A stretch of DNA of 64,000 nt from Bacteroidaceae bacterium (GTDB lineage Bacteria; Bacteroidota; Bacteroidia; Bacteroidales; Bacteroidaceae): NCBI GenBank assembly GCA_016291905.1, contig JAEEZS010000067.1, positions 7,926 through 71,925 on the forward strand. Reading direction: 5' to 3'. Every line of letters begins with the position of its first letter. The first letter of the stretch is position 1. A program made the position numbers and the translations under genes. Under the pieces are notes generated by a model. It saw nothing but the letters and a program-made list of their open reading frames with translations. It was not told the origin of the DNA and did no database searches. Of the stretch, positions 5,344 to 56,206 are shown piece after piece.

Positions 5344-5361
5344 AGTCGTTCGCTTTTCTCT

Positions 5362-6975: not shown

Positions 6976-6981
6976 ACTTGT

Positions 6982-7040
6982 TTAGATGTATATGATAGAA
7001 TGTTCTACCGAGATCTATTTTTGAAGAAAATACTAACCAT
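6982..7040 (-). pseudogene. Short relic of the 3' end of an Mfa1-family pilin gene (homologous to the end of 15007-16584)
   Basis: Nucleotides 6976-7035 align by eye at about 70-75% with 15001-15060. The alignment includes the stop codon position (tta at 6982-6984 versus 15007-15009), but there is an indel and no ORF. Confidence 0.35.
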
Positions 7041-7182
7041 CAACTCCTCGAGTGTACTGGACCCCGTAGTGGCATTGATGGAGAACCTATATCAATTGTT
7101 GTATACTATACCTTATTCCATAAAGTCGTGGTTTATGTTTACAGTGATTGATTCTAAATCTACAGCGTTTGATTCTATATTT

Positions 7183-7220
7183 TTATCGTATAACGCTGTG
7201 TTTACAGCGTTATACGATAA
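7183..7220 (-). terminator. Perfect 17-bp stem-loop immediately downstream of the giant gene stop (possible terminator or processing site)
   Basis: ttatcgtataacgctgt / gttt / acagcgttatacgataa. The stem is flanked by T5 and A4 runs. No canonical U-tract follows the stem on the minus-strand transcript. Confidence 0.45.
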
Positions 7221-7232
7221 AAAGTATGCCTA

Positions 7233-13376: not shown

Positions 13377-13389
13377 TTAGAATACGCTA

Positions 13390-15000: not shown

Positions 15001-15006
15001 ACTTGT

Positions 15007-16584: not shown

Positions 16585-16611
16585 GCTTTCGTTTCGTTCG
16601 TATCTTACTTA

Positions 16612-33966: not shown

Positions 33967-35103
33967 TTAGCGGTTTTTGTACATGTCGTCGTAGTATTTC
34001 TGATAGTCGCCACTGGTGACGTTGTCCAGCCACTCCTGGTTGTCGAGGTACCAGCGGACGGTCTTCTCGATGCCCTCCTCGAACTGCAGGCTGGGCTCCC
34101 AGCCGAGTTCGCGCTGCAGCTTGCTGCTGTCGATGGCATAGCGCAGGTCGTGCCCCGCACGGTCGGTGACGTAGGTGATGAGGTCCATGTCGGCGCCCTC
34201 GGGACGTCCCAGCAGGCGGTCAACGGTGTTGATCAGCACGCGGATGATGTCGATGTTCTTCCACTCGTTGAAGCCTCCGATGTTGTACGTCTCGGCAATG
34301 GTGCCGCGATGGAAGATGACGTCGATGGCGCGGGCGTGGTCCTCGACGTAGAGCCAGTCGCGCACGTTCTCGCCCTTGCCGTACACGGGCAGGGGCTTGC
34401 GGTGGCGTATGTTGTTGATGAAGAGCGGGATGAGCTTCTCGGGGAACTGATAGGGGCCGTAGTTGTTCGAGCAGTTCGTCACGATGGTGGGCAGGCCGTA
34501 GGTGTCGTGGTAGGCGCGCACGAAGTGGTCGCTGGAGGCCTTGGCGGCGCTGTAGGGGCTGTGCGGCTGGTACTTCAGGTCTTCGGTGAAGAACAGTTCG
34601 CCGTAGGCCAGGTGGTGCTGCCCGCTGCTGGCTTTCGTCGTGAACGGCGGCTGTATGCCCTCGGGGTGCGTCATCTCCAGGGCGCCATACACCTCGTCGG
34701 TGCTGATGTGGTAGAAGCGCTTGCCCTCGTAGCCCTCCGGCAGGCTCTCCCAGTAGAGTTTCGCGGCCTGCAGCAGGCTGAGCGTGCCCATGACGTTCGT
34801 CTTCGCAAAGGTGAACGGGTCCTTGATGCTGCGGTCCACGTGGCTCTCGGCAGCGAGGTGGATGATGCCGTCGACGTGCTCGCGTTGCATGAGGGCGCAG
34901 ATGGTGTCGAAGTCGCAGATGTCGGCGCGGACGAAGGAGTAGTTCGGCTTGTCCTCAATGTCCTTCAGGTTGGCCAGGTTGCCTGCATACGTCAGTTTGT
35001 CCACGTTGATGACACGGTACTCGGGGTACTTGTTCACGAAGAGACGGACGACGTGGCTGCCGATGAAGCCTGCTCCACCTGTGACGATGAGGGTTCGGTT
35101 CAT
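33967..35103 (-). CDS. rfbB: dTDP-glucose 4,6-dehydratase
   Basis: 378 aa with an N-terminal Rossmann motif TGGAGFIGSH, an SDR catalytic YSAAK motif and overall RfbB-like sequence. Confidence 0.9.
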   Translation of the reverse strand: MNRTLIVTGGAGFIGSHVVRLFVNKYPEYRVINVDKLTYAGNLANLKDIEDKPNYSFVRADICDFDTICALMQREHVDGIIHLAAESHVDRSIKDPFTFAKTNVMGTLSLLQAAKLYWESLPEGYEGKRFYHISTDEVYGALEMTHPEGIQPPFTTKASSGQHHLAYGELFFTEDLKYQPHSPYSAAKASSDHFVRAYHDTYGLPTIVTNCSNNYGPYQFPEKLIPLFINNIRHRKPLPVYGKGENVRDWLYVEDHARAIDVIFHRGTIAETYNIGGFNEWKNIDIIRVLINTVDRLLGRPEGADMDLITYVTDRAGHDLRYAIDSSKLQRELGWEPSLQFEEGIEKTVRWYLDNQEWLDNVTSGDYQKYYDDMYKNR

Positions 35104-35162: not shown

Positions 35163-35368
35163 GTGCAAGGCGAGCGAAAAACCAAATATATTTGAGTTTT
35201 TCCGAGCCGCAGCCTATCTAAAAGCCTCCGAAGGAGGATTAAAGATAGTGAACCGAGCGAAAAACCAAATATATTTGGATTTTTCCGAGCCGCAGCCTAT
35301 CTAAAAGCCTCCGAAGGAGGATTAAAGATAGTGAACCGAGCGAAAAACCAAATATATTTGGATTTTTG
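35156..35368. repeat. About 84-bp tandem repeat (about 2.5 copies), each with a promoter-like cassette plus a cUUCGg/GAAG hairpin
   Basis: aaagatagtg recurs at 35156, 35241 and 35324. The units share ...gagcgaaaaaccaaatatatttgg(a/t)tttttccgagccgcagcctatctaaaagcctccgaaggaggattaaagatagtg. Confidence 0.85.
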
Positions 35369-35418
35369 AGGAATAAACTATTATTTTGACATTTTTTGGA
35401 ACTATCGAAAAATCTAAG

Positions 35419-35426
35419 TATATTTG
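35419..35426 (+). promoter_or_regulatory. -7 promoter box TATATTTG at the start of AT-rich island 1
   Basis: It matches TAnnTTTG about 100 nt upstream of the 35527 ATG. Confidence 0.4.
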
Positions 35427-35526
35427 CCGAGGAAAAGAAAACCCCAACCACTCGATATACGTATACAGCCTTTTGACGGCATCAAAAGAATGCTTTCCTT
35501 TGCAGAAAAAAGAAACACGATGGATT

Positions 35527-35784
35527 ATGGATGAAATACTAGTAGAACAAATCAGGTGCTTGAATCAGATTAGTGCGTGGGAAACCTTTGGAATGCACGC
35601 TGTTGCCGTGGTGAGCAAAGGCAATCCAGGCGAGTATGAGAACAACCCGACAGTTATTGAATATCAGGCAAAAGGCTACGAACTGGTTGATGCCAATATG
35701 TTTGGTCAGGGAGGAGAGACAGGCGAGATCTTGATATTCAATAAAGTCGAGGATGGGGATGTTAAGAGAGGATGGGGATGTTAA
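35527..35784 (+). CDS. Hypothetical small protein (85 aa)
   Basis: This is the ORF 35386-35784 trimmed to the first ATG downstream of the predicted promoter (MDEILVEQIRCLNQ...). No recognisable motif. Confidence 0.45.
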   Translation: MDEILVEQIRCLNQISAWETFGMHAVAVVSKGNPGEYENNPTVIEYQAKGYELVDANMFGQGGETGEILIFNKVEDGDVKRGWGC

Positions 35785-36617
35785 GAAATGACGGGTCGGA
35801 AAGAACGAAGTTGTTAAAAGAACAAAGCATGAACGAAGCAACGGATTTCCATTTTCAAAGCATTTTCAAGGTTAAGCGATATTATTATTGCCATTATAAC
35901 ATAAAGAAATGCCATTGGCCGGAGTTCAAACTATATTCGCCAGATTCGATATACTTTCAAACACTGGCAGAAGCGGAGGAATACGTACAACGCTTCTCCC
36001 AGTACTCCTGTCGCGATACATACGCATTTGTCGTCACTGAGTTGCCTTTAGGGTTTCAACTTAGGGATCGTATTTCCGAAGATTACTTTTCCGAACGAAT
36101 CTATCTTCCTGACGGTACTTTGTGGGGCGTAAACGACTATGCTGATATCATGCAAACGTGGACTCCTCTTTCAGTAGATGAAGCAGAGCTGGGGCATTAT
36201 TTGGGAAAGAAACGGATGTTTCATGGGCGCACACCCGAAGAAATCCGGTTCAAGCCAGGAGATATTGTAGAGGTGTTCTGTTATCCGGGAAACAGCTTCT
36301 GGGGCGATGATTACGTGAGTCTTGCCATTGTTGTTCAGACACCTCCCCCTGTGGATGAGGTGGCCAGAATGAGAGAAGATTACATGGCAACCCACAGCGA
36401 CTATGATCTTTCCGACCATAGTTTGGGCTATGAATTTGGAAGCCACCTTGACTGCTATATTGTCATACCCTATAATTTTGGCGACACCGACTATTCTCCG
36501 ACAATTGCAACAATGAGGCCATCATTGCCAATCTCAACCAGAAGGAAGAATTTGCTTATAAGCCAGTACGAACAATACCTTGCGGGAGAACTGAAACCAA
36601 AAGAAATCAACCAATGA
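35772..36617 (+). CDS. Hypothetical protein (281 aa; alternative start MNEATDF at 35829)
   Basis: Long ORF in the AT-rich island with no recognisable motif. Its 5' end lies inside a 19-bp tandem duplication, so the 35829 start may be the real one. Confidence 0.55.
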   Translation: MGMLRNDGSERTKLLKEQSMNEATDFHFQSIFKVKRYYYCHYNIKKCHWPEFKLYSPDSIYFQTLAEAEEYVQRFSQYSCRDTYAFVVTELPLGFQLRDRISEDYFSERIYLPDGTLWGVNDYADIMQTWTPLSVDEAELGHYLGKKRMFHGRTPEEIRFKPGDIVEVFCYPGNSFWGDDYVSLAIVVQTPPPVDEVARMREDYMATHSDYDLSDHSLGYEFGSHLDCYIVIPYNFGDTDYSPTIATMRPSLPISTRRKNLLISQYEQYLAGELKPKEINQ

Positions 36618-36673
36618 GACATTAAATAAAAATATTAGATAAGATTATTTTGGAAAGAAGGAAACAGAGTAGT

Positions 36674-37471
36674 ATGTTAGTGGAAGGCGTTCAATATAAT
36701 GAAAAGGAGGACTCCTTTACCTTTAATTTCCTAAATGATTCGAAACAGGATATTATCAAATTAACAAATCACGGACTACATAAGAGTGAGTTATATAATA
36801 AATGTTTCTTTTTCAAATATCAGTTTGATCCTGACGTGAGCAAGCCAATTAGGTCAAAGTATATTGAATATATTAAATTTCATGAGAATATGAAGGACAA
36901 TGATATTTCAACCTTCATTAAAAGGGCTGTTAATTCACTGGATAGCACTATCAATCTAAGAGGATACAATACCGTCGTTTATCCACAATCCATGTCAGAG
37001 ATTAATAGAGAAATGCTTTCGTATTTGAGGATGTTTGGCTATCCTGAATTCATCCCATTTGAACTTGCAAAGATTCCTCCATCTGAGATAGTATTTGATT
37101 ATGACTCATACAAACGTGAGGTTTTGGATTCCACACATCAAATCGGGAATAGGGTGTTTCCCAAATACACAGAAGAACAAAAACGTGAAAAACTCTCGGA
37201 TATAGAGAAAATGATGGACGAATTGAGGAAAAAGGATTATTTCACAATTGGTAATGATTCGAAAGTAAAATACCGCAATTATCTACATAATATTTTCCGT
37301 TTCAACAATGAAGAAGAACGGATGGCGTTTGAAAAACTAACCAAACCTAAAGTACTCATCATTGATGATGTTAAAACAAGTGGTGCGTCACTAAATTTCG
37401 TTATTGATACTTTATATAAGGTTAATCCGTCTGTGACGGTTGTAGTGTTTTCATTAATTGGAAAAGACTAG
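36674..37471 (+). CDS. ComF-like phosphoribosyltransferase-domain protein
   Basis: The C-terminal PRPP-binding loop VLIIDDVKTSGASL matches the type I PRTase motif (hydrophobic x4-DD-x-x-T/S-G-x-T/S). The ORF-track start is TTG at 36650; the first ATG is at 36674. Confidence 0.6.
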   Translation: MLVEGVQYNEKEDSFTFNFLNDSKQDIIKLTNHGLHKSELYNKCFFFKYQFDPDVSKPIRSKYIEYIKFHENMKDNDISTFIKRAVNSLDSTINLRGYNTVVYPQSMSEINREMLSYLRMFGYPEFIPFELAKIPPSEIVFDYDSYKREVLDSTHQIGNRVFPKYTEEQKREKLSDIEKMMDELRKKDYFTIGNDSKVKYRNYLHNIFRFNNEEERMAFEKLTKPKVLIIDDVKTSGASLNFVIDTLYKVNPSVTVVVFSLIGKD

Positions 37472-37520
37472 TAAATTTGAATTTAGGGGTATTTTTGCGG
37501 ATAATCATAATAAAGTGCTT

Positions 37521-37991
37521 ATGCCAAAGAAAGTGACAAAATTAACAGAGGACGAATTGGAAGATGTTGTTAAGGAATCTTTCAAAAGAGTCCATGACGA
37601 ATATGCCGTTGCTTTGAACGATGAAAACGGTAATAGGACTATTGGGAGGAACATAATCAACGAAATGGCAAGATTGAACAAGAAAGATGGCCCACAATCA
37701 CCTTTTCCTTCTGATAAGTACAAAATTTGGGTTCAAGGCGATAATTCACCCCACAAACCACCGCACATGCACATAAATTACCCGCAAGAAGGTTGGCAAA
37801 TCAAGGTTTATATTGAGAATGGAGAACTGTGGAGCGTTGTAAGTTATGGTAATAGGGGAAGAAATGACACATTTTCTGATGTTATAAATTGGGTCAAAAA
37901 ATGGTTTGAAATGCCCACCACAATGCCAGGACGTGTCGGAACAAATCAACAAGCAGCATTGAACGAATGGGATGCTTGTAATAATGATTAA
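37521..37991 (+). CDS. Hypothetical protein with a DUF4160-like C-terminal region
   Basis: SPHKPPHMHINYPQEGWQIKVYIENGEL resembles the H-x-PPH-x-H core of DUF4160. The ORF-track start is TTG at 37458; the first ATG is at 37521. Confidence 0.45.
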   Translation: MPKKVTKLTEDELEDVVKESFKRVHDEYAVALNDENGNRTIGRNIINEMARLNKKDGPQSPFPSDKYKIWVQGDNSPHKPPHMHINYPQEGWQIKVYIENGELWSVVSYGNRGRNDTFSDVINWVKKWFEMPTTMPGRVGTNQQAALNEWDACNND

Positions 37992-38108
37992 GCTGTGTTT
38001 TTTTCATACAGTTTTAACCCACCTATTCAGGATAATCTGCAATATCATTGCCTAAATATTTGCTTATTTGAAATAGTTTCATTAATTTTGCCACCAAATA
38101 TAGTGCAT

Positions 38109-38531
38109 ATGTATAGGAATGTTTTATTTGGCGATTATTTTCACTTGGGCTTTTCATTACCTCGATATGTTGACCTTCTAAAGCTTATTAGGCCTAAATC
38201 GTTCATAATGGTAGATAACGATGGTATTAAAGGATATATGTTATTGAAAAAAGGAAAGATGAAATTGCAAAATTACAACAATAGTAATGAAACATTACAT
38301 TTTCTTAGGATTTATGACCAAACAAATTTCGAAATATACCAAATAATATCGTTGTTTCAAAAAGAAGATAATGATGTCATTTATAATATCTTTGATAGAG
38401 TATTAGCTAAACTGAATAATGGAGATTACTTGTGGGGCAAAGCATATAATTCTTCCGACCATTATATATATCAAAAATTAGGCTTTATAAAACTAAGTGA
38501 CAAAATATATGGCTATCAGTATACATTATAA
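38109..38531 (+). CDS. Hypothetical protein (weak GNAT-like C-terminus)
   Basis: The ATG at 38109 is preceded by a TAATTTTG box at 38083-38090. Only the tail (IYQKLGFIKL) is reminiscent of acetyltransferases, and no Q/RxxGxG/A motif was seen. Confidence 0.4.
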   Translation: MYRNVLFGDYFHLGFSLPRYVDLLKLIRPKSFIMVDNDGIKGYMLLKKGKMKLQNYNNSNETLHFLRIYDQTNFEIYQIISLFQKEDNDVIYNIFDRVLAKLNNGDYLWGKAYNSSDHYIYQKLGFIKLSDKIYGYQYTL

Positions 38532-38997
38532 AGATGAGTAACCAAATCAATGAGTGCTCATTTCTTATAGTTATTTATGCCAAGTGCTATATTATTGCCA
38601 AAAAATATGGGATAAAATGATGGCATATTATAAAATGCTGGTCACTAACCTCAAATGTTTTTAGCTTTGGTATTGCAGTTCCAGATTTTATTAGTATATT
38701 TGCACAGAATATAGCGTGACGCAGCGAGCAGGTATTCCAGACGGGATTACTCTCTATGACTATGATTAAGAGTCGATTATTGAAAAAAGACCCCGGCTTT
38801 CAAATAAGAGAATGTGATTCAATGCGTTGAGATGGAGAAGGCAAAACAGGTTGTTCTATAGACTGTTGAGGTGCCGAAAACTACGGGACAGATGGCGCGG
38901 TCGGTTTCTGGCTGGCATTCAGCGTCATAAGGGATAGAATGGGAAGACTGCGTTTTCGTAAGGCTTTCATTCACTATCAGTTATTAAGCAGATTTGC

Positions 38998-39241
38998 AAA
39001 GGTGTCAAAGTGTCAAGGTGTCATGGTGTCATTTTGGGTTATGGGGTTTGGGCGTAGGCCGGACGGATGGGGAGGGGGAGACTGTAAGAAAATCCGAAGG
39101 AATATATTATAAATTATTATATATATTATTTAATTATATATTATAATTTATTATAATATATAATTAAGGCTTCTCCCGAAGGTGCATGCGGAATGCTTCA
39201 CCGAAAATGACACCATGACACTTTGACACTTTGACACCTTT
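38998..39241. repeat. Structured element: 38-bp inverted repeat built from 8-bp GTGTCA(A/T) iterons around an AT-rich quasi-palindromic core
   Basis: The left arm aaaggtgtcaaagtgtcaaggtgtcatggtgtcatttt (38998-39035) pairs with the right arm aaaatgacaccatgacactttgacactttgacaccttt (39204-39241) with one mismatch. The core at 39103-39168 consists entirely of A and T. Confidence 0.85.
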
Positions 39242-39628
39242 TTCACTCGGCTGGAAGTCAGCGACTTACAAAGGATGCTAAGGGCTAACTCACACTGGCA
39301 GACGTTGTTACGCACAGGAGGCGGGCAAGGGCGTTTTCAGGGGTAAGACGGCTGCTCCCCATACCCTCACCCTGCCCAGAATCCCACTGCGCTGTACTGA
39401 CAGCCCAGTGGACTGGGCGCACGACGCAGTGCGTTAGCGATTTATTCCAGTGGGCTTATCGGAGGGGAATTGGGCGTCTTGCCCTGGCGTAAATGAGGGA
39501 ATACTGGCATGGCGCAAATGAAGGAAATAGGACAGGGCAAACCGAGCGAAAAGGCAATTCTATGGGAGATTTGGTTAAAAAAGCCCTCTTATATTGGGTG
39601 AGGATTTCGGGATTTTCAAAAAAGTGTG

Positions 39629-39636
39629 TAATTTTG
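39629..39636 (+). promoter_or_regulatory. -7 promoter box TAATTTTG
   Basis: It lies 35 nt upstream of the 39671 ATG. Confidence 0.5.
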
Positions 39637-39670
39637 CAGCGAGAGAATGCTTGTCGTTAAAGTAGAAAAA

Positions 39671-40600
39671 ATGAAGAAACTCTGTCATTACCTATCGGAA
39701 TACATGGGGGTGCTGGTGCTGGCAGCTGCCTTGCTGGCGCTGGCTTTCCCGAATGTGCTGCAACAGGTGCGTCCGAAGGTTATCAACTATCTGCTGGGCG
39801 TCGTGATGTTTGGCATGGGACTGACGCTGAACCTAAGGGATTTCAAAATCGTCTTCAGCCGTCCGAAGGATGTCATCGTCGGCTGTCTGGCGCAGTTCAC
39901 CATCATGCCGCTGCTGGCCTGGGGGCTGGGGAGAGCCTTTCAGCTCGACGAGGCATTGGCTCTTGGCGTGGTGCTGGTGGGCTGTTGTCCTGGCGGCACG
40001 GCCTCGAATGTGATTACGTATCTGGCGAAGGGCGATCTGGCATTGTCTGTGGGAATGACAGGCGTTTCCACCTTGCTGGCACCCCTGCTGACGCCTCTGC
40101 TCACCTGGGCATTGGCCGGAAAGAGCGTCGATGTGGACGTGGCCGGTATGCTGTTGAGCATCCTCTGGGTGGTCATCTTGCCTATCGTCGTGGGGTTGAT
40201 TGTCAAGGGACTTTTGCCCCAACTTACGGAGAAGGCCACCGCCTACCTGCCCGCTGTCTCCACGCTTGCCATCGCCTTCATTGTGGCTATCGTTGTCGGG
40301 GCCAATGCCCACAAGCTGATGGCAGGCGGCTGGGTCATCGTCATGGTAGTCATGCTTCACAACCTCTGCGGACTGGGTCTTGGCTATCTGTTGGGGAGGC
40401 TGTTAGGGCTGTCTGAGCCGAAGAAGCGGGCCATCTCCATCGAGGTGGGCATGCAGAACTCCGGCCTCGCCTCGTCGCTGGCCACGCTCCATTTCGCGGC
40501 CTATCCCATGGCTGCGATTCCCGGTGCCATCTTCAGCGTGTGGCACAACATCAGCGGTGCGATGGTCGCCCGGCTTTACACGAGAAAACAAGCCGGCTGA
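39671..40600 (+). CDS. Bile acid:sodium symporter (BASS/ASBT-like) family transporter
   Basis: Multi-TM protein with CCPGGTASNV and MQNSGLA motifs typical of the BASS family. The start MKKLCHYLSEY lies downstream of the promoter box. Confidence 0.85.
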   Translation: MKKLCHYLSEYMGVLVLAAALLALAFPNVLQQVRPKVINYLLGVVMFGMGLTLNLRDFKIVFSRPKDVIVGCLAQFTIMPLLAWGLGRAFQLDEALALGVVLVGCCPGGTASNVITYLAKGDLALSVGMTGVSTLLAPLLTPLLTWALAGKSVDVDVAGMLLSILWVVILPIVVGLIVKGLLPQLTEKATAYLPAVSTLAIAFIVAIVVGANAHKLMAGGWVIVMVVMLHNLCGLGLGYLLGRLLGLSEPKKRAISIEVGMQNSGLASSLATLHFAAYPMAAIPGAIFSVWHNISGAMVARLYTRKQAG

Positions 40601-47997: not shown

Positions 47998-48040
47998 TAA
48001 GATGTCGCCTGTTTCCTATTCCTTTTAATATAGTTTCCGC

Positions 48041-48928
48041 ATGAAGCCCGCTCTGATTTTCCACCAGTATATCTGGATTATCAATACGTTCCGAACCTTT
48101 GGGCGTCTGACTTTTGACGAACTTGCCCAAAAGTGGAAGGCTGACAAAGTAGCCAATGGCAATCCATTGCAGCGCTCGTCGTTTAACCGTCATCGTGATG
48201 CCATTCTCGATATGTTCGGCATTATCATCGACTGCGAGGCTAAAACCTATAAATACTATATCAGCAATCCCGAAGTCCTGAACGACGATGCCATAGAACG
48301 TTGGCTGCTCTCCACGCTTACCGTCCAAGGCGTGCTCTCCGACAGCGTTTCCATCAAGGAGCGGATTGTCTTGGAGGAAGTGCCTGCGGGCGAAGAATAC
48401 CTGCAAACCATCATTCGTGCCATCAAGTCCGGCAAGCGTCTTCGTCTTGGCTACCAACGTTTCGGCACGGAAAGCCACGAGACGACGGTTTCGCCCTATG
48501 CGCTGAAGCTGTTTCACCGGCGTTGGTATCTGCTGGCTTACACAGGGCGCCACATGGCAACCTATTCGTTGGATCGTATGACCAAGGTAGAGATGACGGA
48601 CGAAAGTTTCACCTTTCCTGCCGACTTCTCGGCTCAGGAATACTTTTCGGAGTATTACGGCGTGTTGGCCGACGAGACCCCGATGGCCCACGTTGTCATC
48701 AGAGCCCATGCCTGGACTCCTGACTATATCCGCACCCTTCCTTTGCATTCTTCCCAGCGCGAGATAGGGGCTACGGACATGTACGCCGATTTCTCCTACG
48801 ACCTTCGTCCCACAGCCGATTTTCTGGGCACGCTGCTCTCGCATGGCGACGGTATTGAGGTGCTCGAACCCCTTGAGCTGCGCGAGAAAATGAAGAAAAT
48901 GATAGCCGAAAATCTTAAAAGATATTAA
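48041..48928 (+). CDS. WYL-domain transcriptional regulator (wHTH-WYL-WCX, BrxR/CapW-like architecture)
   Basis: 295 aa with an N-terminal HTH-like region and a central WYL signature (VSPYALKLFHRRWYLLAY). The size and layout match defence-associated WYL regulators. Confidence 0.8.
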   Translation: MKPALIFHQYIWIINTFRTFGRLTFDELAQKWKADKVANGNPLQRSSFNRHRDAILDMFGIIIDCEAKTYKYYISNPEVLNDDAIERWLLSTLTVQGVLSDSVSIKERIVLEEVPAGEEYLQTIIRAIKSGKRLRLGYQRFGTESHETTVSPYALKLFHRRWYLLAYTGRHMATYSLDRMTKVEMTDESFTFPADFSAQEYFSEYYGVLADETPMAHVVIRAHAWTPDYIRTLPLHSSQREIGATDMYADFSYDLRPTADFLGTLLSHGDGIEVLEPLELREKMKKMIAENLKRY

Positions 48929-49003
48929 AATCGCGCAGGGTGTCCCGACTTTTGGGTCACCACCCCTCTTACTTTGCATCCGTAATCATAAAACAGTAGT
49001 ATT

Positions 49004-49348
49004 ATGGAAGCAAAGAAACTCTATTTCATGGATTGCCACCTTGCTGGCAGAATGTATTACGATGCCGACGAAGTATGGGATCAGCTGAAAGTCGGAACAA
49101 TGCTAAAACTGGAGCGCGACAAAGAGAATCATTATGACCCCCATGCCGTAATGGTTGTGTATGAGGACAATGCCGGCGAAGAATTCAAGTTGGGATACAT
49201 CCCTCGTGGCGAAAACGAAACCCTTGCCGGCTTGCTCGAAATGGGTTGGACGGACATCTTCGAGTGTCGCATCAATAAACTGAATCCTGACGCCCACCCC
49301 GAGCACCAGGTCTTTATGACAATAAAAATAAAAAGGAATAAGAAGTAG
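49004..49348 (+). CDS. Stand-alone HIRAN-domain protein
   Basis: 114 aa. LAGRMYYDADEVWDQLKVGTMLKLERDKENHYDPHAVMVVY...LGYIPRGENETLAGLL fits the HIRAN pattern (G..yy...G..l.L.re..N.yD..Av.v....lGyip). Confidence 0.8.
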   Translation: MEAKKLYFMDCHLAGRMYYDADEVWDQLKVGTMLKLERDKENHYDPHAVMVVYEDNAGEEFKLGYIPRGENETLAGLLEMGWTDIFECRINKLNPDAHPEHQVFMTIKIKRNKK

Positions 49349-49371
49349 ATAATAAATACAGAAATAAAACT

Positions 49372-49581
49372 ATGGCAACGTTTTACACAATAAAATGTCC
49401 GAAATGCGGGAAGGTCTTCCATGTCGCCAAGTGGGTGTTTGCGAATTGGGATTTTTCGAAACCCGTACCTGTTGAACTGCGGGACGAAACGCCGTTCCAT
49501 TGCCCCGAATGCAATCATACGATGTGCGTGCTGGACGATGATTTCCACGACAATGTGCTGGAAGTGATACATGGCGACTAG
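49372..49581 (+). CDS. Small zinc-ribbon protein (69 aa)
   Basis: Two CxxC knuckles (CPKCG ... CPECN). The gene lies 23 nt after the HIRAN gene. Confidence 0.6.
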   Translation: MATFYTIKCPKCGKVFHVAKWVFANWDFSKPVPVELRDETPFHCPECNHTMCVLDDDFHDNVLEVIHGD

Positions 49582-49665
49582 GGAGTATAATTCAATCTGT
49601 ATTTGCGTGAATAAAAAAAGAATCATTACCTTTACATTTAATATCACATTTAAAAAACTACAATT

Positions 49666-50304
49666 ATGCAAACGAAAAAGACAAAACGAATTTTCAACCT
49701 GATTATCGTCGATGAAAGCGGATCGATGTCCGTTATACGCAAGCAAGCTTTCGCTGGGATGAACGAGACGCTACAAACCATTAGGAAAATGCAGGAGAAG
49801 TATCCCAATCAAACGCAGCTGGTTACTCTGGTCACCTTTGATAGCGACCATTTCACTTGGCATTATGACAACACACCAGCTTCCGACACAAATGATTTGA
49901 AATGGAAAGACTATAATCCAGGTGGATGCACGCCTCTATACGATGCTATTGGAAAATCCGTCTCAAAAGTAAATGCGCAGATTGACGAAGATGACAACGT
50001 GCTTGTAACTATCATCACGGATGGCGAAGAGAACAGTTCCATAGAGTGGACACTCAAAATGGTTCGCACCCTGATTGAGAAACTAAAGAAACAACATTGG
50101 ACTTTTACACTCATCGGAACAGACAATCTGGATGTAGAGACTATGGCTCGCGGTTTTGCGATAGACGAGCATTTAAAGTTCCAGCAAGACGAAGAAGGAA
50201 CAAAAGCTATGTTCGCTCGCGAACGTCGTAGCCGCGAACGATACAACTGCAGTATTGAGGAAGACATACCACTTCCATCAGGCTCGTTCTTCGAAGAAGA
50301 ATAA
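49666..50304 (+). CDS. von Willebrand factor A (vWA) domain protein with a complete MIDAS motif
   Basis: The motifs IIVDESGSMS (DxSxS), GGCTPLYDAIG (Thr) and IITDGEENSS (Asp) are all present. 212 aa, no signal peptide. Confidence 0.8.
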   Translation: MQTKKTKRIFNLIIVDESGSMSVIRKQAFAGMNETLQTIRKMQEKYPNQTQLVTLVTFDSDHFTWHYDNTPASDTNDLKWKDYNPGGCTPLYDAIGKSVSKVNAQIDEDDNVLVTIITDGEENSSIEWTLKMVRTLIEKLKKQHWTFTLIGTDNLDVETMARGFAIDEHLKFQQDEEGTKAMFARERRSRERYNCSIEEDIPLPSGSFFEEE

Positions 50305-50490
50305 ACAGTATTATCTCAAAGGGACTTTCTTGGCTCAGCTTATCCAAGTCCCTTTGTTTTTCAAAAAAGTCATAGCCTATTTTTTTATTTATCAAATAAT
50401 CCTTAACTTTGTTCCGCAATAAGGAAAAGGAAAGTTATTCTACATTTTTCTTTAATAAGTAAAGAGTGTAATCATTAAAAGGAAGATACC

Positions 50491-51867
50491 ATGAGTGTAT
50501 GTGTTTATTTTAAGACAGAGAAGCAATTAGAGCCTAAAGAAATATTCAAGGCTGTTGCTGATAAAGGAGAGCAGATAATGGTTGTATCATCTGAGTTTCC
50601 AAGTTTGAAATTCGGCAGGATGTATGCAGCTTTGAGGGGCTTGGAAGTAAATCAAGAGGAAGAAGGATTTGAAATCAGAATATGTGCAAACGCTTCCAGA
50701 GAGGATTATCGGCTGTATCCTGTGGTTATAGATGTAATGAACGAGTTAACATCGATAAAAGCTAAAAATGAAGACGATGAGGACATTAATAACCCATATG
50801 AAATATTCAATGATGAATGGATCGACGACCAGATGAAGGCAGATAGAAATGTCACTTGCGCTTTAATAAGATCTTCTGGCGCGTCAATTACATATAACGG
50901 AATGTTCTCGGACTTTTGTCTTGGTTTTCACATCATGAACGGGTTCGAAGTGGATATCAAGAACCCAGATGAATCTAAATATAACGGACTGCTGGAGTAT
51001 CTGGTTAGTGTTCAATGGATGTTGAAAGATAAAAAGGATACAAGCTCTAGGATTTTGATTCAGAATCCTAATGATAAAGAAGAGACGAGGAGCGTGTCTT
51101 TAATCTCCATTAAGAATAACCAACTTGACAAATTTGACTATATCTCACATGCTTCTTTGTTTTGTATAATGAATCAAGATACCGGAGAAGTGGCTATAAT
51201 GCCTTTTGAGCATCTTCCCAAAATAGTGAGAAGCAAGAGCCTTAAAATCATCGATGAATTTTCTTTTTTCAAAGATGGCAGGTTGATGGTCAATAGCGTT
51301 AAGGAAATGATGACATTGGCCAAGCGATATCAGCCACGCGACTTGTTCTATAGGCCTACTTTCCCAGGTAGTGGCTATGACAAAAAACAGCATACCTTTA
51401 TCCTGAAATGGAACCCAGCCATTTCCAGCGTAAAGATGGAAGACCATCTGGAAGGATTACGCAACATTTGGGTAGATGATTTTAACTGGAGTGTATATGA
51501 ATGGGAGAAAGCCGAAATGGGCGATCGCTTCTATCTTGTTAGGGTAGGTGAAGGTAACACAGGAATCGTTATGTCTGGTGTGTTTAGCTCACAACCTTAT
51601 GTTTTAGATGATTGGAGTGGTAGGGGTCGAACTGTTTATTATATGGAGATGAAGCCTAATGTTATCATTGATCCTGATAGAGCTCCAATGATTACAACGA
51701 AGGAATTAGACGAAGCCATTCCTGATTTTACATGGAATGGTGGTCATTCTGGCCACATGCTTACCGATGACCAAGCAATGAAACTGGAGAAACTCTTCGC
51801 GAAATATTTCAAGAAGATTGAGGATAAAGATGATGGCGAAACAATCAACGTGCTTCATCGTTTTTAA
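50491..51867 (+). CDS. Hypothetical 458-aa protein with a C-terminal PUA-like (EVE/ASCH-like) region
   Basis: The N-terminal ~310 aa show no recognisable motif. The C-terminus HTFILKWNPAISS...FNWSVYEWEKAEMGDRFYLVRVGEGNTGIVMSGVFSSQPY resembles the EVE/PUA pattern (W.lK.NP..w...W.v.....GD.f.ly....GIvg.g.v.s.py). A TAACTTTG box lies about 80 nt upstream. Confidence 0.6.
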   Translation: MSVCVYFKTEKQLEPKEIFKAVADKGEQIMVVSSEFPSLKFGRMYAALRGLEVNQEEEGFEIRICANASREDYRLYPVVIDVMNELTSIKAKNEDDEDINNPYEIFNDEWIDDQMKADRNVTCALIRSSGASITYNGMFSDFCLGFHIMNGFEVDIKNPDESKYNGLLEYLVSVQWMLKDKKDTSSRILIQNPNDKEETRSVSLISIKNNQLDKFDYISHASLFCIMNQDTGEVAIMPFEHLPKIVRSKSLKIIDEFSFFKDGRLMVNSVKEMMTLAKRYQPRDLFYRPTFPGSGYDKKQHTFILKWNPAISSVKMEDHLEGLRNIWVDDFNWSVYEWEKAEMGDRFYLVRVGEGNTGIVMSGVFSSQPYVLDDWSGRGRTVYYMEMKPNVIIDPDRAPMITTKELDEAIPDFTWNGGHSGHMLTDDQAMKLEKLFAKYFKKIEDKDDGETINVLHRF

Positions 51868-51872
51868 TTCTT

Positions 51873-52841
51873 ATGTTAGGAGCGATAATTGGTGATATCG
51901 TAGGGAGCCGATGGGAGTTCAATCCTACCAACGACTACAACTTTGAGCTGTTCTCAGACGAGAACGACTTTACCGACGACACCATCTGTACGGTTGCTGT
52001 GGCTGATGCGTTGTTGAAAGGGCGTGACTTTGGCCAGAGCATCCACGACTGGTGCCGACGCTATCCTCATCCGATGGGCGGATATGGATGCTCGTTTGTC
52101 GGATGGGTTCAAAGCGATAATCCCCAACCCTATGGCAGCTATGGTAACGGGGCAGCCATGAGGGTTAGCCCTGTGGCACATTGGTACGAGGAAGTCGGTC
52201 AGGTCCTTGATGCTGCAGCTGCAACAGCCCTTCCATCCCACAACCACGAAGAGGCTATCAAGGGCGCGCAGACGGTGGCATTAGCCATCTTCAAGGCTCT
52301 TGAGTACAAGAGATACCGAGAAGCTGCTTTGCACATCGACGAAATCCTCGCCGAGTGCGTACAGTTCTCCGGCTACGATATAAACATGCCAAAAGCCTCC
52401 GTCCTGAACAAGTTCGACGAAACCTGTCAGGGAACCGTGCCTGTCGCTTTGAAGATTATCAGCATGGCTACCTGTTTTGAGGATGCCGTGCGTCTGGCTG
52501 TCAGCCTTGGTGCCGATGCCGACACGTTAGGAGCCATCACAGGCAGCATCGCCGAGGCAATCTGGGGCATACCGTCAAAGTTGCGAAGGCCGTTTGAAAA
52601 GTTCCTGCCTGACGACATGCTGTCTGTCCTGAATGAGTTCCATCAAGCACGTCCTCGTTCTTTCATTCCCCTCATCGATACCTGTTTTTCGGGCGATGAT
52701 TTTAGCGATGTTTGTTGGGAAATCCTTTATGACGTGGATGGCAAAGAGGGCTACGACAAGATAAAGAGCAAGACGATGAGCGAGCATGAACAGAAACGCA
52801 TGCTGATGGCAGCACGCGCCAAAGCGAGGGAGGTTTGGTAA
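51873..52841 (+). CDS. ADP-ribosylglycohydrolase (ARH/DraG-family) protein
   Basis: The N-terminus MLGAIIGDIVGSRWEF, and GNGAAMRVSP and GADADTLGAITGSIAEA, are hallmark ARH motifs. It starts 5 nt after the preceding gene. Confidence 0.85.
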   Translation: MLGAIIGDIVGSRWEFNPTNDYNFELFSDENDFTDDTICTVAVADALLKGRDFGQSIHDWCRRYPHPMGGYGCSFVGWVQSDNPQPYGSYGNGAAMRVSPVAHWYEEVGQVLDAAAATALPSHNHEEAIKGAQTVALAIFKALEYKRYREAALHIDEILAECVQFSGYDINMPKASVLNKFDETCQGTVPVALKIISMATCFEDAVRLAVSLGADADTLGAITGSIAEAIWGIPSKLRRPFEKFLPDDMLSVLNEFHQARPRSFIPLIDTCFSGDDFSDVCWEILYDVDGKEGYDKIKSKTMSEHEQKRMLMAARAKAREVW

Positions 52842-52884
52842 AAGTATCTTTCATGATTGTTTTGAAAAAAACAAAAAAATGAGT

Positions 52885-52892
52885 TATCTTTG
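52885..52892 (+). promoter_or_regulatory. -7 promoter box TATCTTTG
   Basis: It lies 31 nt upstream of the 52923 ATG. Confidence 0.55.
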
Positions 52893-52922
52893 CATCGAAA
52901 TAATAAAACATAGTCAAATATC

Positions 52923-54632
52923 ATGAGTAAAATAACAGGAAAGGAATATCCCATTTGCGATATTTTCACTTATAAGTTTGAGTATCACATACCTAGTTAT
53001 CAACGTCCTTATGCATGGGAAAAAGAACAAGCTGAAACTTTGTTCGATGATTTATTGGATTTCTACAAGAATCAGCCTAAAGATGACAATTATTTCTTGG
53101 GAAGTATTGTTCTTATCAAGGAAGACGATGAAAACAAACCTTATTCAGACGTGATAGATGGACAGCAGAGATTGACCTCGTTGACAATTCTTCTCTCAGT
53201 AATAGCATCTGTAATAGAAGATGTAAAATTGAGAACAAAGGTCGAAAAATATCTTTATGAGGATGGAGACGAACTAATTGGATTGGCACCTCAACCAAGG
53301 CTCTTTCTTAGACCAAAAGAAAGGGACTTTTTCAAAGATTTCATACAGGATGTGCAAATAGATAAACTGCTCTCATTAAAACCAGATAGCCCAGTTTTTG
53401 ATACGGAAGCCAAAAAGCACATCAGAATCAATTGTCAGGCTTTTAAGGATAGATTAGAGCAGAATTTTGTGCCGGAAAGTGATGATTTCAAGAAATTTGT
53501 TAGTTTTATACTTAAGCGCTGTTATCTAATATCAGTAATGACACCCAGTCAGACTTCCGCCTTCAGAGTGTTTTCTGTTATGAATAGTCGGGGATTGGAT
53601 TTGTTGCCGATTGATATTTTTAAAGCGGATATTATTGGAGAAATTCCTTCTGGTCTTCAGAATTATTATACCCAAAAATGGGAAGATATGGAGAATGATT
53701 TGTCCCGTCAGGGATTCAACGAATTGTTTGTCCATATTAGAATGATTTATGCTAAAGAGAAACTTCGCGAGGAACTTGTTACCAATTTTAAGAAAACGGT
53801 AATATCACAAATAAGTAAATCGGAAGATTTTATCGACAAAGTCCTGTTTCCTTATTGTAAGGCTTTTAATACAATCCGAAAATGTGACTATTCTTCAACG
53901 TCTGATACAGCTAAGCAAATAAATGAAATGTTTAAATGGCTTAACAAAGGATTTAACTATGACTGGATTCCTGCTACATTAAAGTTCATGCTTAGTTATG
54001 GAAACGATTCAAATTACCTGCTGTGGTTTCTTAAAAAAATGGAACGGCTTGCTACGTGTTTAATGGCAACGGGTCAGGATGTCAACAAGCGTATAAACCG
54101 ATATGTCCAAATTCTAAATGAGTTGGAGAATAGAACTAACCATAGTCTATCTTCGCCTTTGGTTTCAATTGAACTTACTGAAGAAGAGAAAGCCTTATTT
54201 ATTGACGTCTTGAGTAAAGATATTTATAATATGACATCAAGATATAGGAATTACATTATTCAACGTCTTGACTCTTTTGTCTCAGATGGAGCTGCCACAT
54301 ATGATGAAAAAGTATTTACGATAGAACACGTTTTACCACAGACCGTCAATCCTGATTCTCAATGGGCTCATCTTTGGCCAGACGAAGCAAAAAGAACCTT
54401 TTGGTTGCACAAAATTGCCAATCTTGTTCCTCTTGCTCGTAGAATTAATTCTGCTGCTCAGAACTACGACTTTGATGAGAAAAAAGAAAAATATTTCACT
54501 AATTCTAGAACAGGTACATCCTCATATAATCTTACTACTCAAGTATTATCCATTCCTGTTTGGACTGAAGAGGTCGTAGAACAACGTCAAAACAATTTGA
54601 TAAACGTTTTCAAAGCAAATTGGGAATTATAA
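52923..54632 (+). CDS. GmrSD-like type IV restriction enzyme (DUF262 + DUF1524)
   Basis: The N-terminal DUF262 motifs are IPSYQRPYAWEKEQAETLFDDL and DGQQRLTSL. The C-terminal DUF1524 His-Me finger motifs are TIEHVLPQ and IANLVPLARRINSAAQNYDF. Confidence 0.85.
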   Translation: MSKITGKEYPICDIFTYKFEYHIPSYQRPYAWEKEQAETLFDDLLDFYKNQPKDDNYFLGSIVLIKEDDENKPYSDVIDGQQRLTSLTILLSVIASVIEDVKLRTKVEKYLYEDGDELIGLAPQPRLFLRPKERDFFKDFIQDVQIDKLLSLKPDSPVFDTEAKKHIRINCQAFKDRLEQNFVPESDDFKKFVSFILKRCYLISVMTPSQTSAFRVFSVMNSRGLDLLPIDIFKADIIGEIPSGLQNYYTQKWEDMENDLSRQGFNELFVHIRMIYAKEKLREELVTNFKKTVISQISKSEDFIDKVLFPYCKAFNTIRKCDYSSTSDTAKQINEMFKWLNKGFNYDWIPATLKFMLSYGNDSNYLLWFLKKMERLATCLMATGQDVNKRINRYVQILNELENRTNHSLSSPLVSIELTEEEKALFIDVLSKDIYNMTSRYRNYIIQRLDSFVSDGAATYDEKVFTIEHVLPQTVNPDSQWAHLWPDEAKRTFWLHKIANLVPLARRINSAAQNYDFDEKKEKYFTNSRTGTSSYNLTTQVLSIPVWTEEVVEQRQNNLINVFKANWEL

Positions 54633-54730
54633 TTCCGATTGCTGCAAAAAACCAAAAAAGAATCTCTGGGAGAGAGACGATAAAAAATGTATAAAATGTA
54701 AAAGTATTGGGAAAATAAAAAAAATCTATA

Positions 54731-54825
54731 TATATTTGCACCCGATAAGAGTGGCAACCGATGCACTTGTGGTTCTGAGCGAGGAATGAGTAGGTTGTCG
54801 CTCTTATTCTTAATATAGTTTTTAT
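54731..54825 (+). ncRNA. Candidate small structured RNA (orphan promoter + 15-bp stem + U-run)
   Basis: A TATATTTG box lies at 54731-54738. AUAAGAGUGGCAACC (54745-54759) pairs with GGUUGUCGCUCUUAU (54793-54807) as 13 Watson-Crick and 2 G-U pairs. T5 occupies 54819-54823. There is no ORF. Confidence 0.3.
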
Positions 54826-55058
54826 CTTCGTGATAGACCAGCAAATCAAAATATTGCTGGAATTATAAGACATTAGGCTTCATGATGAAATAAATTTTAG
54901 GCGGTAGCCAGTCAAAGAATACTATATCTTGTGGACAAATACATCTCAGATGAGGCAAGGGCTAAAGGAGAAGAGCTGATGAGAAAGTATGACGTTTATT
55001 ATCCGATAATAAGGCGTAGGATATGTTAGGGGAAAGGCTTTCAAATAATCCGCCCGGA

Positions 55059-55125
55059 CGGATTTTGACACTTGGAAAATGATTTTGACCAAATGACCAA
55101 ATGACCAAATGACCGCACGCGAATC
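55059..55125. repeat. 67-bp direct repeat, copy 1 (solo arm of the GGTCATTT-iteron element)
   Basis: cggattttgacacttggaaaatgattttgaccaaatgaccaaatgaccaaatgaccgcacgcgaatc. It is identical to 55756-55822 apart from 2 mismatches. Confidence 0.85.
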
Positions 55126-55287
55126 GTATCAGTAGCCGAAGTCGCCCGAAGAGAATCGCCAGGGACAGGACAACCGATCCGCTGAATTATAGTTCCCCCG
55201 ATACGCCACAATGTATTTTTGCTATATCTTTGCAGATATATACTCCTTGATTTTTGAAATAAGCTGGCGGGCAGGTGCTACGTATGG

Positions 55288-55530
55288 CTACAGTTTCTCT
55301 TTGTCAGCCTCAAAGAAACAATTATAATCGGCATTATCACGCATGATAACCAAATCGGAGAACAAAGCGCCATCTTCCTTCGAGAAGAGTCCACTCTTGA
55401 CATAATGCTCACCAAACAATGCCATTACACCCCGATGGCTTTTCACATTGTGGCCATCGCTTATCAGCAATGCTGGCCACCTGCCGGATGCTGTCTATAA
55501 CCTTTGTTCCTTCCATAAATCTATATCTCT
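55288..55530 (-). pseudogene. Decayed HEPN-domain (toxin-antitoxin type) gene remnant
   Basis: The 60-aa ORF ...LLISDGHNVKSHRGVMALFGEHYVKSGLFSKEDGALFSDLVIMRDNADYN matches the C-terminal two-thirds of HEPN proteins (KSHxGxxxxF...R..ADY). The N-terminal part is in another frame or behind a stop, and there is no MNT partner gene. Confidence 0.5.
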
Positions 55531-55655
55531 ATCAGACAAACGCCGCTGCAAAAAAAACGTATATAATGAGGAAAAGCAAGAAATTGGACGACTTTTTTAT
55601 ATGAAGCGAATGCTTTTTTCCCGAATATAGTTCCCAATGGGTTGTCCAGTTGTCT

Positions 55656-55822
55656 GGTCAAAGTGGTCATTTGGTCATTTGGTCATTTGTCATTTTCGTT
55701 TTCTGATTCGGTCATTTGCTCACTATATATAAATATAATATTTATTATATAGTGGCGGATTTTGACTCTTGGAAAACGATTTTGACCAAATGACCAAATG
55801 ACCAAATGACCGCACGCGAATC
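55656..55822. repeat. Structured element: inverted arms of (GGTCATTT)3-4 iterons around an AT-only palindromic core; the right arm lies within the 67-bp direct repeat copy 2 (55756-55822)
   Basis: Left arm ggtcaaagtggtcatttggtcatttggtcatttgtcatttt (55656-55696). Core cactatatataaatataatatttattatatagtg (55721-55754). Right arm ...gattttgaccaaatgaccaaatgaccaaatgacc (55773-55811). Confidence 0.85.
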
Positions 55823-56206
55823 AAAAAATCGGGCTCTAGTGCGATGTCATAACTTTTGGGGGTTTGATGTTTGATTACGACAAAGGTATCGGCTATTGGA
55901 GAAAAGCAAAGAATTATTGATGGAAGTTTGTGTTTCTAACATTTTCGATGGCACTATGCTCGTAGCGTTAAGGGCTGTGCCGACAGCGTTTAACTTTGTG
56001 CTCGTAGCGTTAAGGGCTGTGCCGACAGCCCATTGGGCTATAACAGTTCATAGTTCATAATTCATAGTTCATAATTCTTAGTTCATCCCACATTTGGACA
56101 AAAACTGAAAACAACCTACGCAAAAAAACGAGCGAGTTGCCGAAAATTACCCCAACGAAACGATGCAAAAACCAGAAAACCGTTTGGCGGGGTGGGATTG
56201 TTTTTG

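Follow-up and report, generated by a model that had tools for sequence, protein, structure and literature searches.

Do five small genes that stand together in one strongly AT-rich island make up a single system, or were they stacked by chance? The question is raised by a locus in a 64,000-nucleotide stretch of contig JAEEZS010000067.1 (assembly GCA_016291905.1), which was analysed as a whole and is called the window below. Here five open reading frames (ORF1 to ORF5) lie between an rfbB-type gene and a transporter gene of the BASS type, and a preliminary description of the sequence took them for a horizontally acquired operon, possibly a nucleotide-targeting defence or addiction module, with one ComF-like phosphoribosyltransferase (PRTase) and one DUF4160-like protein. 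Our analysis leads to another reading, to which we give a probability of about 0.6: the islet would be a mosaic of independently mobile genes from the phage pool and not a co-evolved five-gene system. According to this reading, a foreign islet of about 4 kb was probably put together from no fewer than three or four units of independent distribution, namely the pair ORF1-ORF2 and, each by itself, ORF3, ORF4 and ORF5; their source would be accessory genes of large Bacteroidota (Prevotella-type) phages, and each product would act alone.

Distribution of the five genes outside the window

The mosaic reading is preferred because the relatives of each unit are found apart from those of the other units, in phages or phage-like contigs as well as in the form of solo genes at unrelated places in chromosomes. 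In a tally of homolog loci that leaves out the window's own strain, and in which the ORF3 set consists of 80 metagenome and 13 other loci, 93 loci have ORF3 only, 8 have ORF2 only (4 of the 8 with ORF1), 7 have ORF4 only and 6 have ORF5 only. ORF2 to ORF5 are combined in no way at any of these approximately 110 loci, and the sole pair that recurs is ORF1 with ORF2. Around ORF3 itself, homologs of ORF1, ORF2, ORF4 or ORF5 are found neither in the loci L001-L003 nor in phage PAU, the 80 metagenome loci or the eight viral loci, and clustering of all neighbours within 6 kb in the 36 long loci gave no conserved ORF3 neighbour. The same five-gene block, for which other genomes were searched, was thus seen in the window's strain only, and the single operon of the preliminary description is not supported, since ORF2 to ORF5 do not co-occur at any of the independent loci compared and since ORF4 and ORF5 carry promoter-like boxes of their own. 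Moreover, the phage-like loci with ORF1-, ORF2-, ORF3- and ORF4-type genes have Metallophos, FGase and sigma-70 genes in common, and a protein of L002 has a counterpart with 55% identity in the 126-kb viral contig L186; because the phage-like loci share such other genes, the island genes look like draws from the accessory pool of large Bacteroidota phages.

The five co-directional ORFs first described do exist, while the touching and overlapping reported between them is true of the maximal reading frames only. With the starts supported by homologs, which are those in Table 1 for ORF1, ORF2, ORF4 and ORF5, successive ORFs are separated by 44, 32, 49 and 117 nt. As promoter pattern we used TAnnTTTG, the -7 box of the Bacteroidota type, which is found about 100 nt before ORF1, 30-50 nt before ORF4 and 26 nt before ORF5, as well as 18 nt before the BASS gene (TAATTTTG at 39629); no such box stands immediately upstream of ORF2 or ORF3. 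These positions fit putative units made up of ORF1-ORF2 (perhaps with ORF3), of ORF4 and of ORF5. Scans of the island for sigma-70 promoters and for terminators performed no better than on shuffled sequence.

Table 1. Positions of the island genes, their borders and the flanking genes in the window
Feature	Position	Strand	Description
rfbB-type dTDP-glucose 4,6-dehydratase	33967-35103	-	Left flank
Left border	35171-35366		About 2.4 tandem copies of an 83-bp unit, 98% identity between copies (repeat search)
ORF1	35527-35784	+	85 aa; small conserved protein, first gene of the ORF1+ORF2 pair
19-bp perfect tandem duplication	35749-35786	+	GAGGATGGGGATGTTAAGA x2 at the junction of the ORF1 3' end and ORF2; 100% identity
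ORF2	35829-36617	+	262 aa from M20 (maximal ORF from 35772)
ORF3	36650-37471	+	273 aa (alternative ATG 36674); predicted type I PRTase fold, PRPP loop VLIIDDVKTSGAS
ORF4	37521-37991	+	156 aa from M22 (maximal ORF from 37458); HKPPHMH core
ORF5 unit	38053-38603	+	CDS 38109-38531 (140 aa); about 55 bp promoter-like upstream, about 70 bp conserved 3' tail
Non-coding right border	38604-39646		AT-rich until about 39250, then GC-rich spacer and BASS promoter box
SBF/BASS transporter	39647-40600		Right flank

The ORF1-ORF2 pair, ORF4 and ORF5

Three of the ORFs had been said to carry no recognisable motif, and in fact ORF1, ORF2 and ORF5 match no family of Pfam, PADLOC, PHROG or NCBIfam. In L090-93 the ORF2 homolog is immediately preceded by a 76-aa gene with which ORF1 shares 62% identity (E 5e-29); a 73-aa gene of the phage-like contig L184 resembles ORF1 at 57% identity. 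ORF2 has 102 homologs, mostly of 250-260 aa and spanning 85-92% of the long ORF, and its closest relative on a long contig (64% identity, L090-93) is placed in a bacterial chromosome between Fic and Mrp/ParA-type genes. ORF1 and ORF2 are, to judge from this conservation, a genuine two-gene cassette. The 19-bp duplication in ORF1 swaps its usual C-terminus for an extension of 10 residues, is seen in the alignment in the window copy only, and looks like a recent slippage event. The AlphaFold model of ORF2 (pLDDT 90.5, pTM 0.88) is beta-rich with a Tudor/SH3-like beta-barrel subdomain; its fold has no match in the PDB below E 0.07, the sole resemblance being to Tudor/SH3-like barrels above that value.

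A distant ORF2 relative (45% identity) belongs to phage-like contigs of 60-112 kb, where it follows primase, DnaB and a 208-aa DprA-like gene. This stretch (L094-L097, 3136-8534) also encodes ADP-ribosylglycohydrolase, NADAR, nucleoside 2-deoxyribosyltransferase-like and DprA-like proteins, a gene set that points to a putative counter-defence aimed at ADP-ribosylation or nucleotides. In phage genomes ORF2 has a weak partial match to an unannotated 4-kb 'Bacteriophage sp.' record, and scans of viral contigs with the family alignments of ORF2, ORF4 and ORF1 gave no match.

The HKPPHMH core reported for ORF4 is present, and the match to DUF4160 is sub-threshold: ORF4 scores 18.6-18.8 bits against PF13711, under the cut-off of 23, and 15.2 bits against NF048015, where 100 is required. 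Matches to DUF4160 at E<=0.01 are obtained in 13/20 members of the ORF4 family, the best at 1.1e-4, and ORF4 is likely a remote relative of DUF4160. With the DUF4160/DhiT toxins it has the H-x-PPH-x-H core in common; the difference is that ORF4 is twice as long as the domain, with extra conserved parts at the N- and C-terminus, the C-terminal tail MPGRVGTNQ...EWDACN being highly conserved. The 25 relatives, of about 150 aa, are found between outer-membrane protein and PBP1a genes in one bacterial lineage, or in phage-like contigs, one of which (L184) also carries an ORF1-like gene that precedes an FGase gene. That ORF4 is one half of a toxin-antitoxin pair is not supported here, as its relatives are monocistronic in L178-184 and have no antitoxin-like partner. 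ORF5 in the role of this partner has no family match and is never found together with ORF4 elsewhere, and tblastn of phage genomes with ORF4 and ORF5 gave no match.

As for ORF5, homologs form 5 clusters among 1.84 billion representative sequences, all aligning from residue 39. In the 48-kb IMG/VR contig L199, the ORF5 homolog has 89% identity as protein and 87.7% as DNA, and the homology extends over window positions 38053-38603 only, including an upstream block with a -33 TTTG and a -7 TAATTTTG shared by both; in five short contigs (L194-198) the unit recurs at 78% identity with the same limits. With identical boundaries in three contexts, ORF5 appears to behave as a self-contained single-gene cassette of about 550 bp. 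The order in L199 is IS1595 transposase, one gene, the ORF5 homolog, two GmrSD type IV restriction genes, a cI-like repressor and RecT, and this site is by its gene content the presumptive accessory or defence corner of a prophage. The GmrSD adjacency is the sole contextual hint of a conflict role for any island gene. A reading of ORF5 as a degenerate GNAT acetyltransferase, considered for its C-terminal 'YQKLGF', was dropped since it has no library support.

The island genes resemble in these respects the morons and hypervariable-region cassettes of phages, which likewise are small and AT-rich, have promoters of their own and occur patchily in phages and host chromosomes. The ORF5 unit travels together with a promoter-like region and a 3' tail of its own, and in L199 it occupies a prophage accessory site. 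The difference is that no prophage can be recognised around the island, and the window flanks contain neither an integrase nor an att site nor phage structural genes.

ORF3, a predicted divergent phosphoribosyltransferase

Type I PRTases bind phosphoribosyl pyrophosphate (PRPP) by a motif of four hydrophobic residues, DD, two variable residues, T/S, G/A, one variable residue and T/S. The PRPP loop seen in ORF3 by the preliminary description (VLIIDDVKTSGASL) is indeed there and fits this motif: D239 and D240 are invariant in both the 27- and the 11-sequence alignments of the family, and T243, G245 and T247 are conserved at >=90%. From the window ORF3 to its viral homologs, G13, D34, P112, K141, L236, D239 and D240 are invariant, and the TSG motif is also kept. 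In addition, ORF3 has an N-terminal beta domain of four strands and a segment YPQSMSEIN that resembles a pyrophosphate (PPi) loop.

Library matches of ORF3 are all sub-threshold and confined to the C-terminal 60 residues or so (about 207-272) around the PRPP loop. They comprise Pfam PF00156 (E 4.7e-4, 19.9 bits, under the cut-off of 26.3), for which several members of the family bear a precomputed match, the PADLOC model of ShosT (E 1.2e-5, residues 215-272 only), and TIGR00201 comF (E 4e-5, 23.6 bits vs a cut-off of 233.55, residues 207-270 aligned). A profile built from 27 family members matches solved PRTases at the PRPP loop only, and 35 relatives were found among 5.8 billion proteins. In the AlphaFold model (pLDDT 80, pTM 0.67), residues 13-59 form four beta strands, followed by an alpha/beta core with a strand and a P-x-S-x-S loop (108-116) and with the PRPP-loop strand at 234-241. 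Foldseek searches with this model list H. pylori ComF (7p0h) at the top (E 5.3e-3), then ShosT (8zvd/8zvb) and purine, uracil and orotate PRTases; for the PRTase matches (ComF, ShosT, XGPRT, APRT, HGPRT) the probabilities are 0.7-0.98, with E 5e-3 to 1e-1 and TM 0.24-0.34. Among viral folds, the best match (E 2e-7) is to an uncharacterised protein of 321 aa from Caudovirales. On sequence and model together, ORF3 is thus predicted to be a protein of the type I PRTase fold that forms a family of its own, neither ShosT nor ComF.

With ShosT (8zvb/8zvc/8zvd) it shares the C-terminal type I PRTase module and the canonical PRPP loop, a remote likeness (Foldseek E 1.5-2e-2, probability 0.95 and TM 0.34 against 8zvd/8zvb). 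ShosT is longer (about 400 aa), carries a HAD-like pyrophosphatase at its N-terminus and requires the DprA-like ShosA (PMC11961720, PMC12961424). In the 273-aa ORF3, by contrast, a small beta-strand N-domain replaces the pyrophosphatase, with no match to any HAD-type family, and ORF1, ORF2, ORF4 and ORF5 match neither PF02481 nor any SLOG family. The earlier judgement that the island is not ShosTA was therefore correct, as ORF3 lacks the pyrophosphatase domain and the island a DprA-like partner. A further difference from ShosTA is that the ORF3 family is mostly phage-encoded or solo, while a likeness to the ShosT-ShosA pair lies in those family members that adjoin or are fused to a SLOG/DprA-like protein. 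With ComF/ComFC, ORF3 shares a PRPP loop near the C-terminus and a PPi-loop segment of the P-x-S/H type after the second core strand. It differs in having a single cysteine (C53) and no four-Cys zinc finger, the family alignment being without conserved Cys pairs, and in having no competence-gene neighbours: those in the window are orphan genes, rfbB and BASS.

A subfamily at 39% identity is a solo gene in many chromosomes of rumen Prevotellaceae, where its GC content of 0.39-0.58 tracks the local genome; in contrast to the window copy, it is to all appearance a long-term resident.

Phage homologs of ORF3 and their gene context

The jumbo phage PAU of Sphingomonas (Sphingobacterium) encodes a homolog, gp114, that equals ORF3 in length, aligns to 98% of it at 40% identity and keeps the invariant residues of the family. 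This gene belongs to a replication and nucleotide module with DNA polymerase and dUTPase, whereas the window ORF3 stands in a bacterial chromosome among unrelated orphan genes. PAU DNA is reported to be extensively modified (PMC7824862); no Que genes were found in PAU gp111-gp121. About 1 kb downstream of gp114, gp117 and gp118 (L009, 9878-11070) match GmrSD_N (DUF262) at E of about 1e-13.

A scan of viral contigs with the single ORF3 protein gave no match, while a scan of IMG/VR with the family profile revealed seven further viral contigs, the largest of 126-296 kb. In one of 162 kb (L189, IMGVR_UViG_3300045988_099147, 9929-17061), the ORF3 homolog heads a complete FolE-QueD-QueE-QueC-QueF cluster, followed in order by a YhhQ/Vut_1-type transporter, SDR, QueF (with an intein), QueC, a homing HNH endonuclease, QueD, QueE and FolE. 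In L191 (IMGVR_UViG_3300007609_000924, 2651-10537), RecA, FEN, a canonical 166-aa PRTase, DnaB and RNR lie to the left of the homolog, and a 114-aa SLOG protein (YAcAr), FolE, QueD, one gene, a radical-SAM enzyme and PolB to the right. The link with SLOG proteins recurs in L190 (9565-10711), where a SLOG/DprA-like gene of 137 aa runs into the start of the ORF3 homolog, and in P0035, which is a SLOG-PRTase fusion within the family; L186 has two tandem ORF3 paralogs after a dCMP deaminase gene. TGT/DpdA had no match among the scanned ORFs of the partial L189 (20 kb) and L191 stretches.

Another homolog is carried by an 87-kb phage-like contig (L001, ENA ERZ27291632 k119_861589), the GC content of which, 0.34, is the same as that of ORF3. 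Immediately downstream of it (9370-13268) are genes for an isochorismatase/PncA-like protein, NAPRTase, NAD synthase (NadE) and NMNAT-Nudix, an NAD-salvage set that resembles the pathways by which phages reconstitute NAD against NAD-depleting defences. ORF3 as a PRPP synthetase (Prs) or an NAD-salvage enzyme is not favoured: L001 already has NAPRTase, and ORF3 ends about 28 residues past the PRPP loop, unlike Prs.

Since the ORF3 family is mainly phage-borne and found in modules of nucleotide metabolism, a phage auxiliary enzyme is at least as likely as a host defence effector. The protein itself most likely binds PRPP and would phosphoribosylate a base-like acceptor, for which a purine or a compound of the 7-deazapurine type is our best guess; we propose the phosphoribosyl transfer because both the PPi-loop-like segment and the PRPP loop are kept through the jumbo-phage homologs in replication and nucleotide modules. 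The window ORF3 would have lost, or never had, the SLOG partner and the preQ0/preQ1 gene context of its phage relatives, and being without them it may be either a stand-alone salvage or base-handling enzyme retained by the host or a recently captured passenger.

A more specific joint reading, for which we see only a slight chance, is that PRTases like PAU gp114 act together with SLOG proteins on 7-deazapurines or other modified bases, and that a captured host copy, possibly with ORF1-ORF2, intercepts this chemistry. The family would then make or recycle modified nucleotides by a route without the DpdA transglycosylase, and the host would use its copy in salvage or, with this one gene, to counter phages whose DNA is modified. 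A DpdA-independent 7-deazaguanine route via modified nucleotides has been left open (PMC6884629), and we found no literature in which a PRTase or a SLOG protein is connected with it.

Composition, borders and acquisition of the island

In windows of 400 nt, the GC content is 0.57-0.64 over the HerA-like gene and rfbB and 0.58-0.65 over BASS and the arabinofuranosidase (Abf) gene, and it lies at 0.27-0.48 from about 35100 to about 39250. The span 35386-38531 has a GC content of 0.369 vs about 0.60 in the host core, and just 1.9% of the windows of the same size in the 64 kb are equally low. At third codon positions (GC3), the five island ORFs have 0.28-0.47 vs 0.74-0.91 in the four flanking genes (HerA-like, rfbB, BASS and Abf). 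The abrupt drop in GC content described previously is hence real and does last until about 39250, only its onset is at the end of rfbB near 35100 and not at 35370; the foreign composition is borne out by the windowed GC and GC3 values, and the position between rfbB and BASS is correct. The island is moreover two-toned, with GC 0.44-0.45 in ORF1-2 and 0.27-0.39 in ORF3-5 (0.335 in ORF3).

Its borders are an 83-bp tandem repeat on the left and an unrelated inverted repeat on the right. Each 83-bp unit contains a 24-nt palindrome AAAAACCAAATATATTTGGATTTTT, in which both strands have TAnnTTTG boxes, and a short GC hairpin CCTCCTTCGGAGG, and the palindrome pattern was counted 3 times vs 0 expected. 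Ahead of the arabinofuranosidase gene (about 40700), and likewise in a relative (L031), there is a 46-nt piece related to this unit. The inverted repeat (38987-39252) has 53-nt arms (87% complementary) with four GTGTCAAR octamers, a 160-nt spacer and an extremely AT-rich palindromic core; its pattern gives 2 matches vs 0 expected, its DNA fold has -65.6 kcal/mol (z -12.8), and no Rfam family matched it. The iteron-like arms and the AT-rich core look like an origin or a protein-binding array, with no specific role supported. As a marker of a mobile element the repeat is unsupported, being confined to the window's strain among 198 loci.

The island has no integrase-like ORF, adjacent tRNA, flanking direct repeats or adjoining Rfam element. 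It was very likely acquired horizontally, as the preliminary description held, and this origin rests on the foreign composition and on the relatives of each gene being scattered over phage-like contigs and unrelated chromosomal sites. As rumen metagenome-assembled genomes of Prevotella, Prevotellaceae or Bacteroidales (80 genomes) are the source of all BASS relatives with 72-90% amino-acid identity, the host is taken to be a rumen Prevotella-like bacterium. Up to a distance of 10 kb from BASS, neither rfbB nor the HerA-like gene nor the arabinofuranosidase is present in any of the 80, which means that the rfbB-BASS neighbourhood itself is not conserved. Look-ups of exact proteins returned no match for ORF3 and rfbB, and contigs of the same strain only for BASS. 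Five such contigs encode the identical BASS protein; they stem from several independent rumen assemblies, match the window at 99.98-100% identity and end inside or just beside the island, and these breaks fit variability at the population level. In another Prevotellaceae metagenome-assembled genome (L020, 2159-2962), a solo gene of the ORF3 subfamily lies about 3 kb upstream of the BASS ortholog, on the opposite strand and in a stretch of lower GC content, a proximity that may be a coincidence or mark a recombination-prone spot.

Further low-GC stretches are present in the 64 kb, at 0.44-0.50 over 1-25 kb and at 0.35-0.49 over about 48-56 kb; the island is therefore not a unique anomaly, and the genome is a mosaic. 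The stretch 48000-56000, probably a defence island, has WYL-WCX, HIRAN and VWA-like genes according to the annotation of L004, an identical contig; a 569-aa ORF in it (52923-54632) shows weak tblastx similarity to a GmrSD gene of the viral contig L199. On the other side of the left flank, the longest ORF of the HerA-like gene (GTG start 34033) and the 3' end of rfbB, on the same strand, have 67 nt in common (33967-34033), and the real start of that gene is probably further downstream.

Weighing the alternatives

Several observations count against the mosaic reading. Since the families are sparse (25-102 proteins; in the case of ORF5, 5 clusters) and contigs are often short, a co-occurring block could have escaped notice. 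TAnnTTTG boxes are common in AT-rich DNA, with 13 in 4.6 kb here vs 0.6/kb window-wide, and this frequency makes the promoter argument weak. No terminator-like site lies between the five packed ORFs; with their tight co-directional packing (gaps of 32-117 nt), co-transcription or functional coupling is possible in this strain. An empty site, an integrase, a tRNA or a flanking direct repeat that would point to the mode of acquisition was not found. As regards the role proposed for ORF3, its viral homologs in a Que and SLOG context are just 21-30% identical to the window protein, L191 encodes a canonical PRTase as well, and the acceptor substrate is not readable from the sequence.

Among the rival explanations, the one that survives best, unlikely as we consider it, is that the islet is functionless decaying phage DNA, a remnant of a prophage or of transduction that has not yet been purged. 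Such a remnant would suit an ORF3 without partner or pathway context, an ORF1 with its C-terminus changed by the 19-bp duplication, GC3 values that are wholly unameliorated, and the lack of mobility genes. Yet the five reading frames are intact and align over their full length to homologs, every invariant residue of the family is kept in ORF3, and the identity of 99.98-100% in the five contigs from several rumen assemblies implies that the islet is at least stably carried.

Less can be said for a smaller module of ORF1, ORF2 and ORF3, which we regard as rather improbable. Here ORF2, with ORF1, would replace the SLOG/DprA-like partner, as in a toxin and neutraliser pair of the ShosTA kind or a nucleotide-modifying pair, with ORF4 and ORF5 as passengers. 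The idea draws on the SLOG proteins that adjoin or are fused to the PRTase in L190, L191 and P0035, on the DprA-like gene directly upstream of the ORF2 homolog in L094-97, on the conservation of ORF1 and ORF2 as a pair, and on the position of ORF2 in the window, 32 nt upstream of the PRTase with no promoter-like box between. Each of these links, however, amounts to about one independent observation, as L094-97 are mutually near-identical and the adjacency of ORF2 and ORF3 is seen in this strain only. An ORF2 homolog is present at 0/93 ORF3 loci and an ORF3 homolog at 0/8 ORF2 loci, the GC content of 0.44-0.45 in ORF1-2 vs 0.335 in ORF3 suggests separate origins, and the beta-rich ORF2 with its Tudor/SH3-like barrel is not of the Rossmann-type SLOG fold.

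Finally, it is very improbable that all five genes form one operon with the PRTase as the effector of a nucleotide-targeting module for anti-phage defence or addiction, and this idea of the preliminary description is not supported, since, for all the compact co-directional layout with no internal terminator-like site, the only PADLOC match (ShosT, at the PRPP-loop region), the ShosT structures among the top Foldseek matches, the GmrSD restriction genes beside the ORF5 homolog in a prophage and a second low-GC island with defence-type genes in the window, the gene combination is absent from all loci outside this strain, the ORF3 family is largely phage-borne or solo, ORF3 has no HAD-like pyrophosphatase and the window no DprA-like partner (PMC11961720), ORF1, ORF2, ORF4 and ORF5 have no PADLOC match, and the relatives of ORF4 do not sit in toxin-antitoxin pairs.

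Implications

The mosaic reading carries a caution, namely that an AT-rich co-directional array which resembles a defence operon can be a chance stack of independently mobile genes from the phage pool, as tests of co-occurrence can quickly reveal. The more useful outcome is the ORF3 family, an uncharacterised group of putative type I PRTases with an intact PRPP loop, present in phage PAU and in large viral contigs. This family is a concrete candidate for how some phages may place 7-deazaguanines in their DNA without DpdA, and it would represent a third partnership between a PRTase and a SLOG protein after ComF-DprA and ShosT-ShosA.

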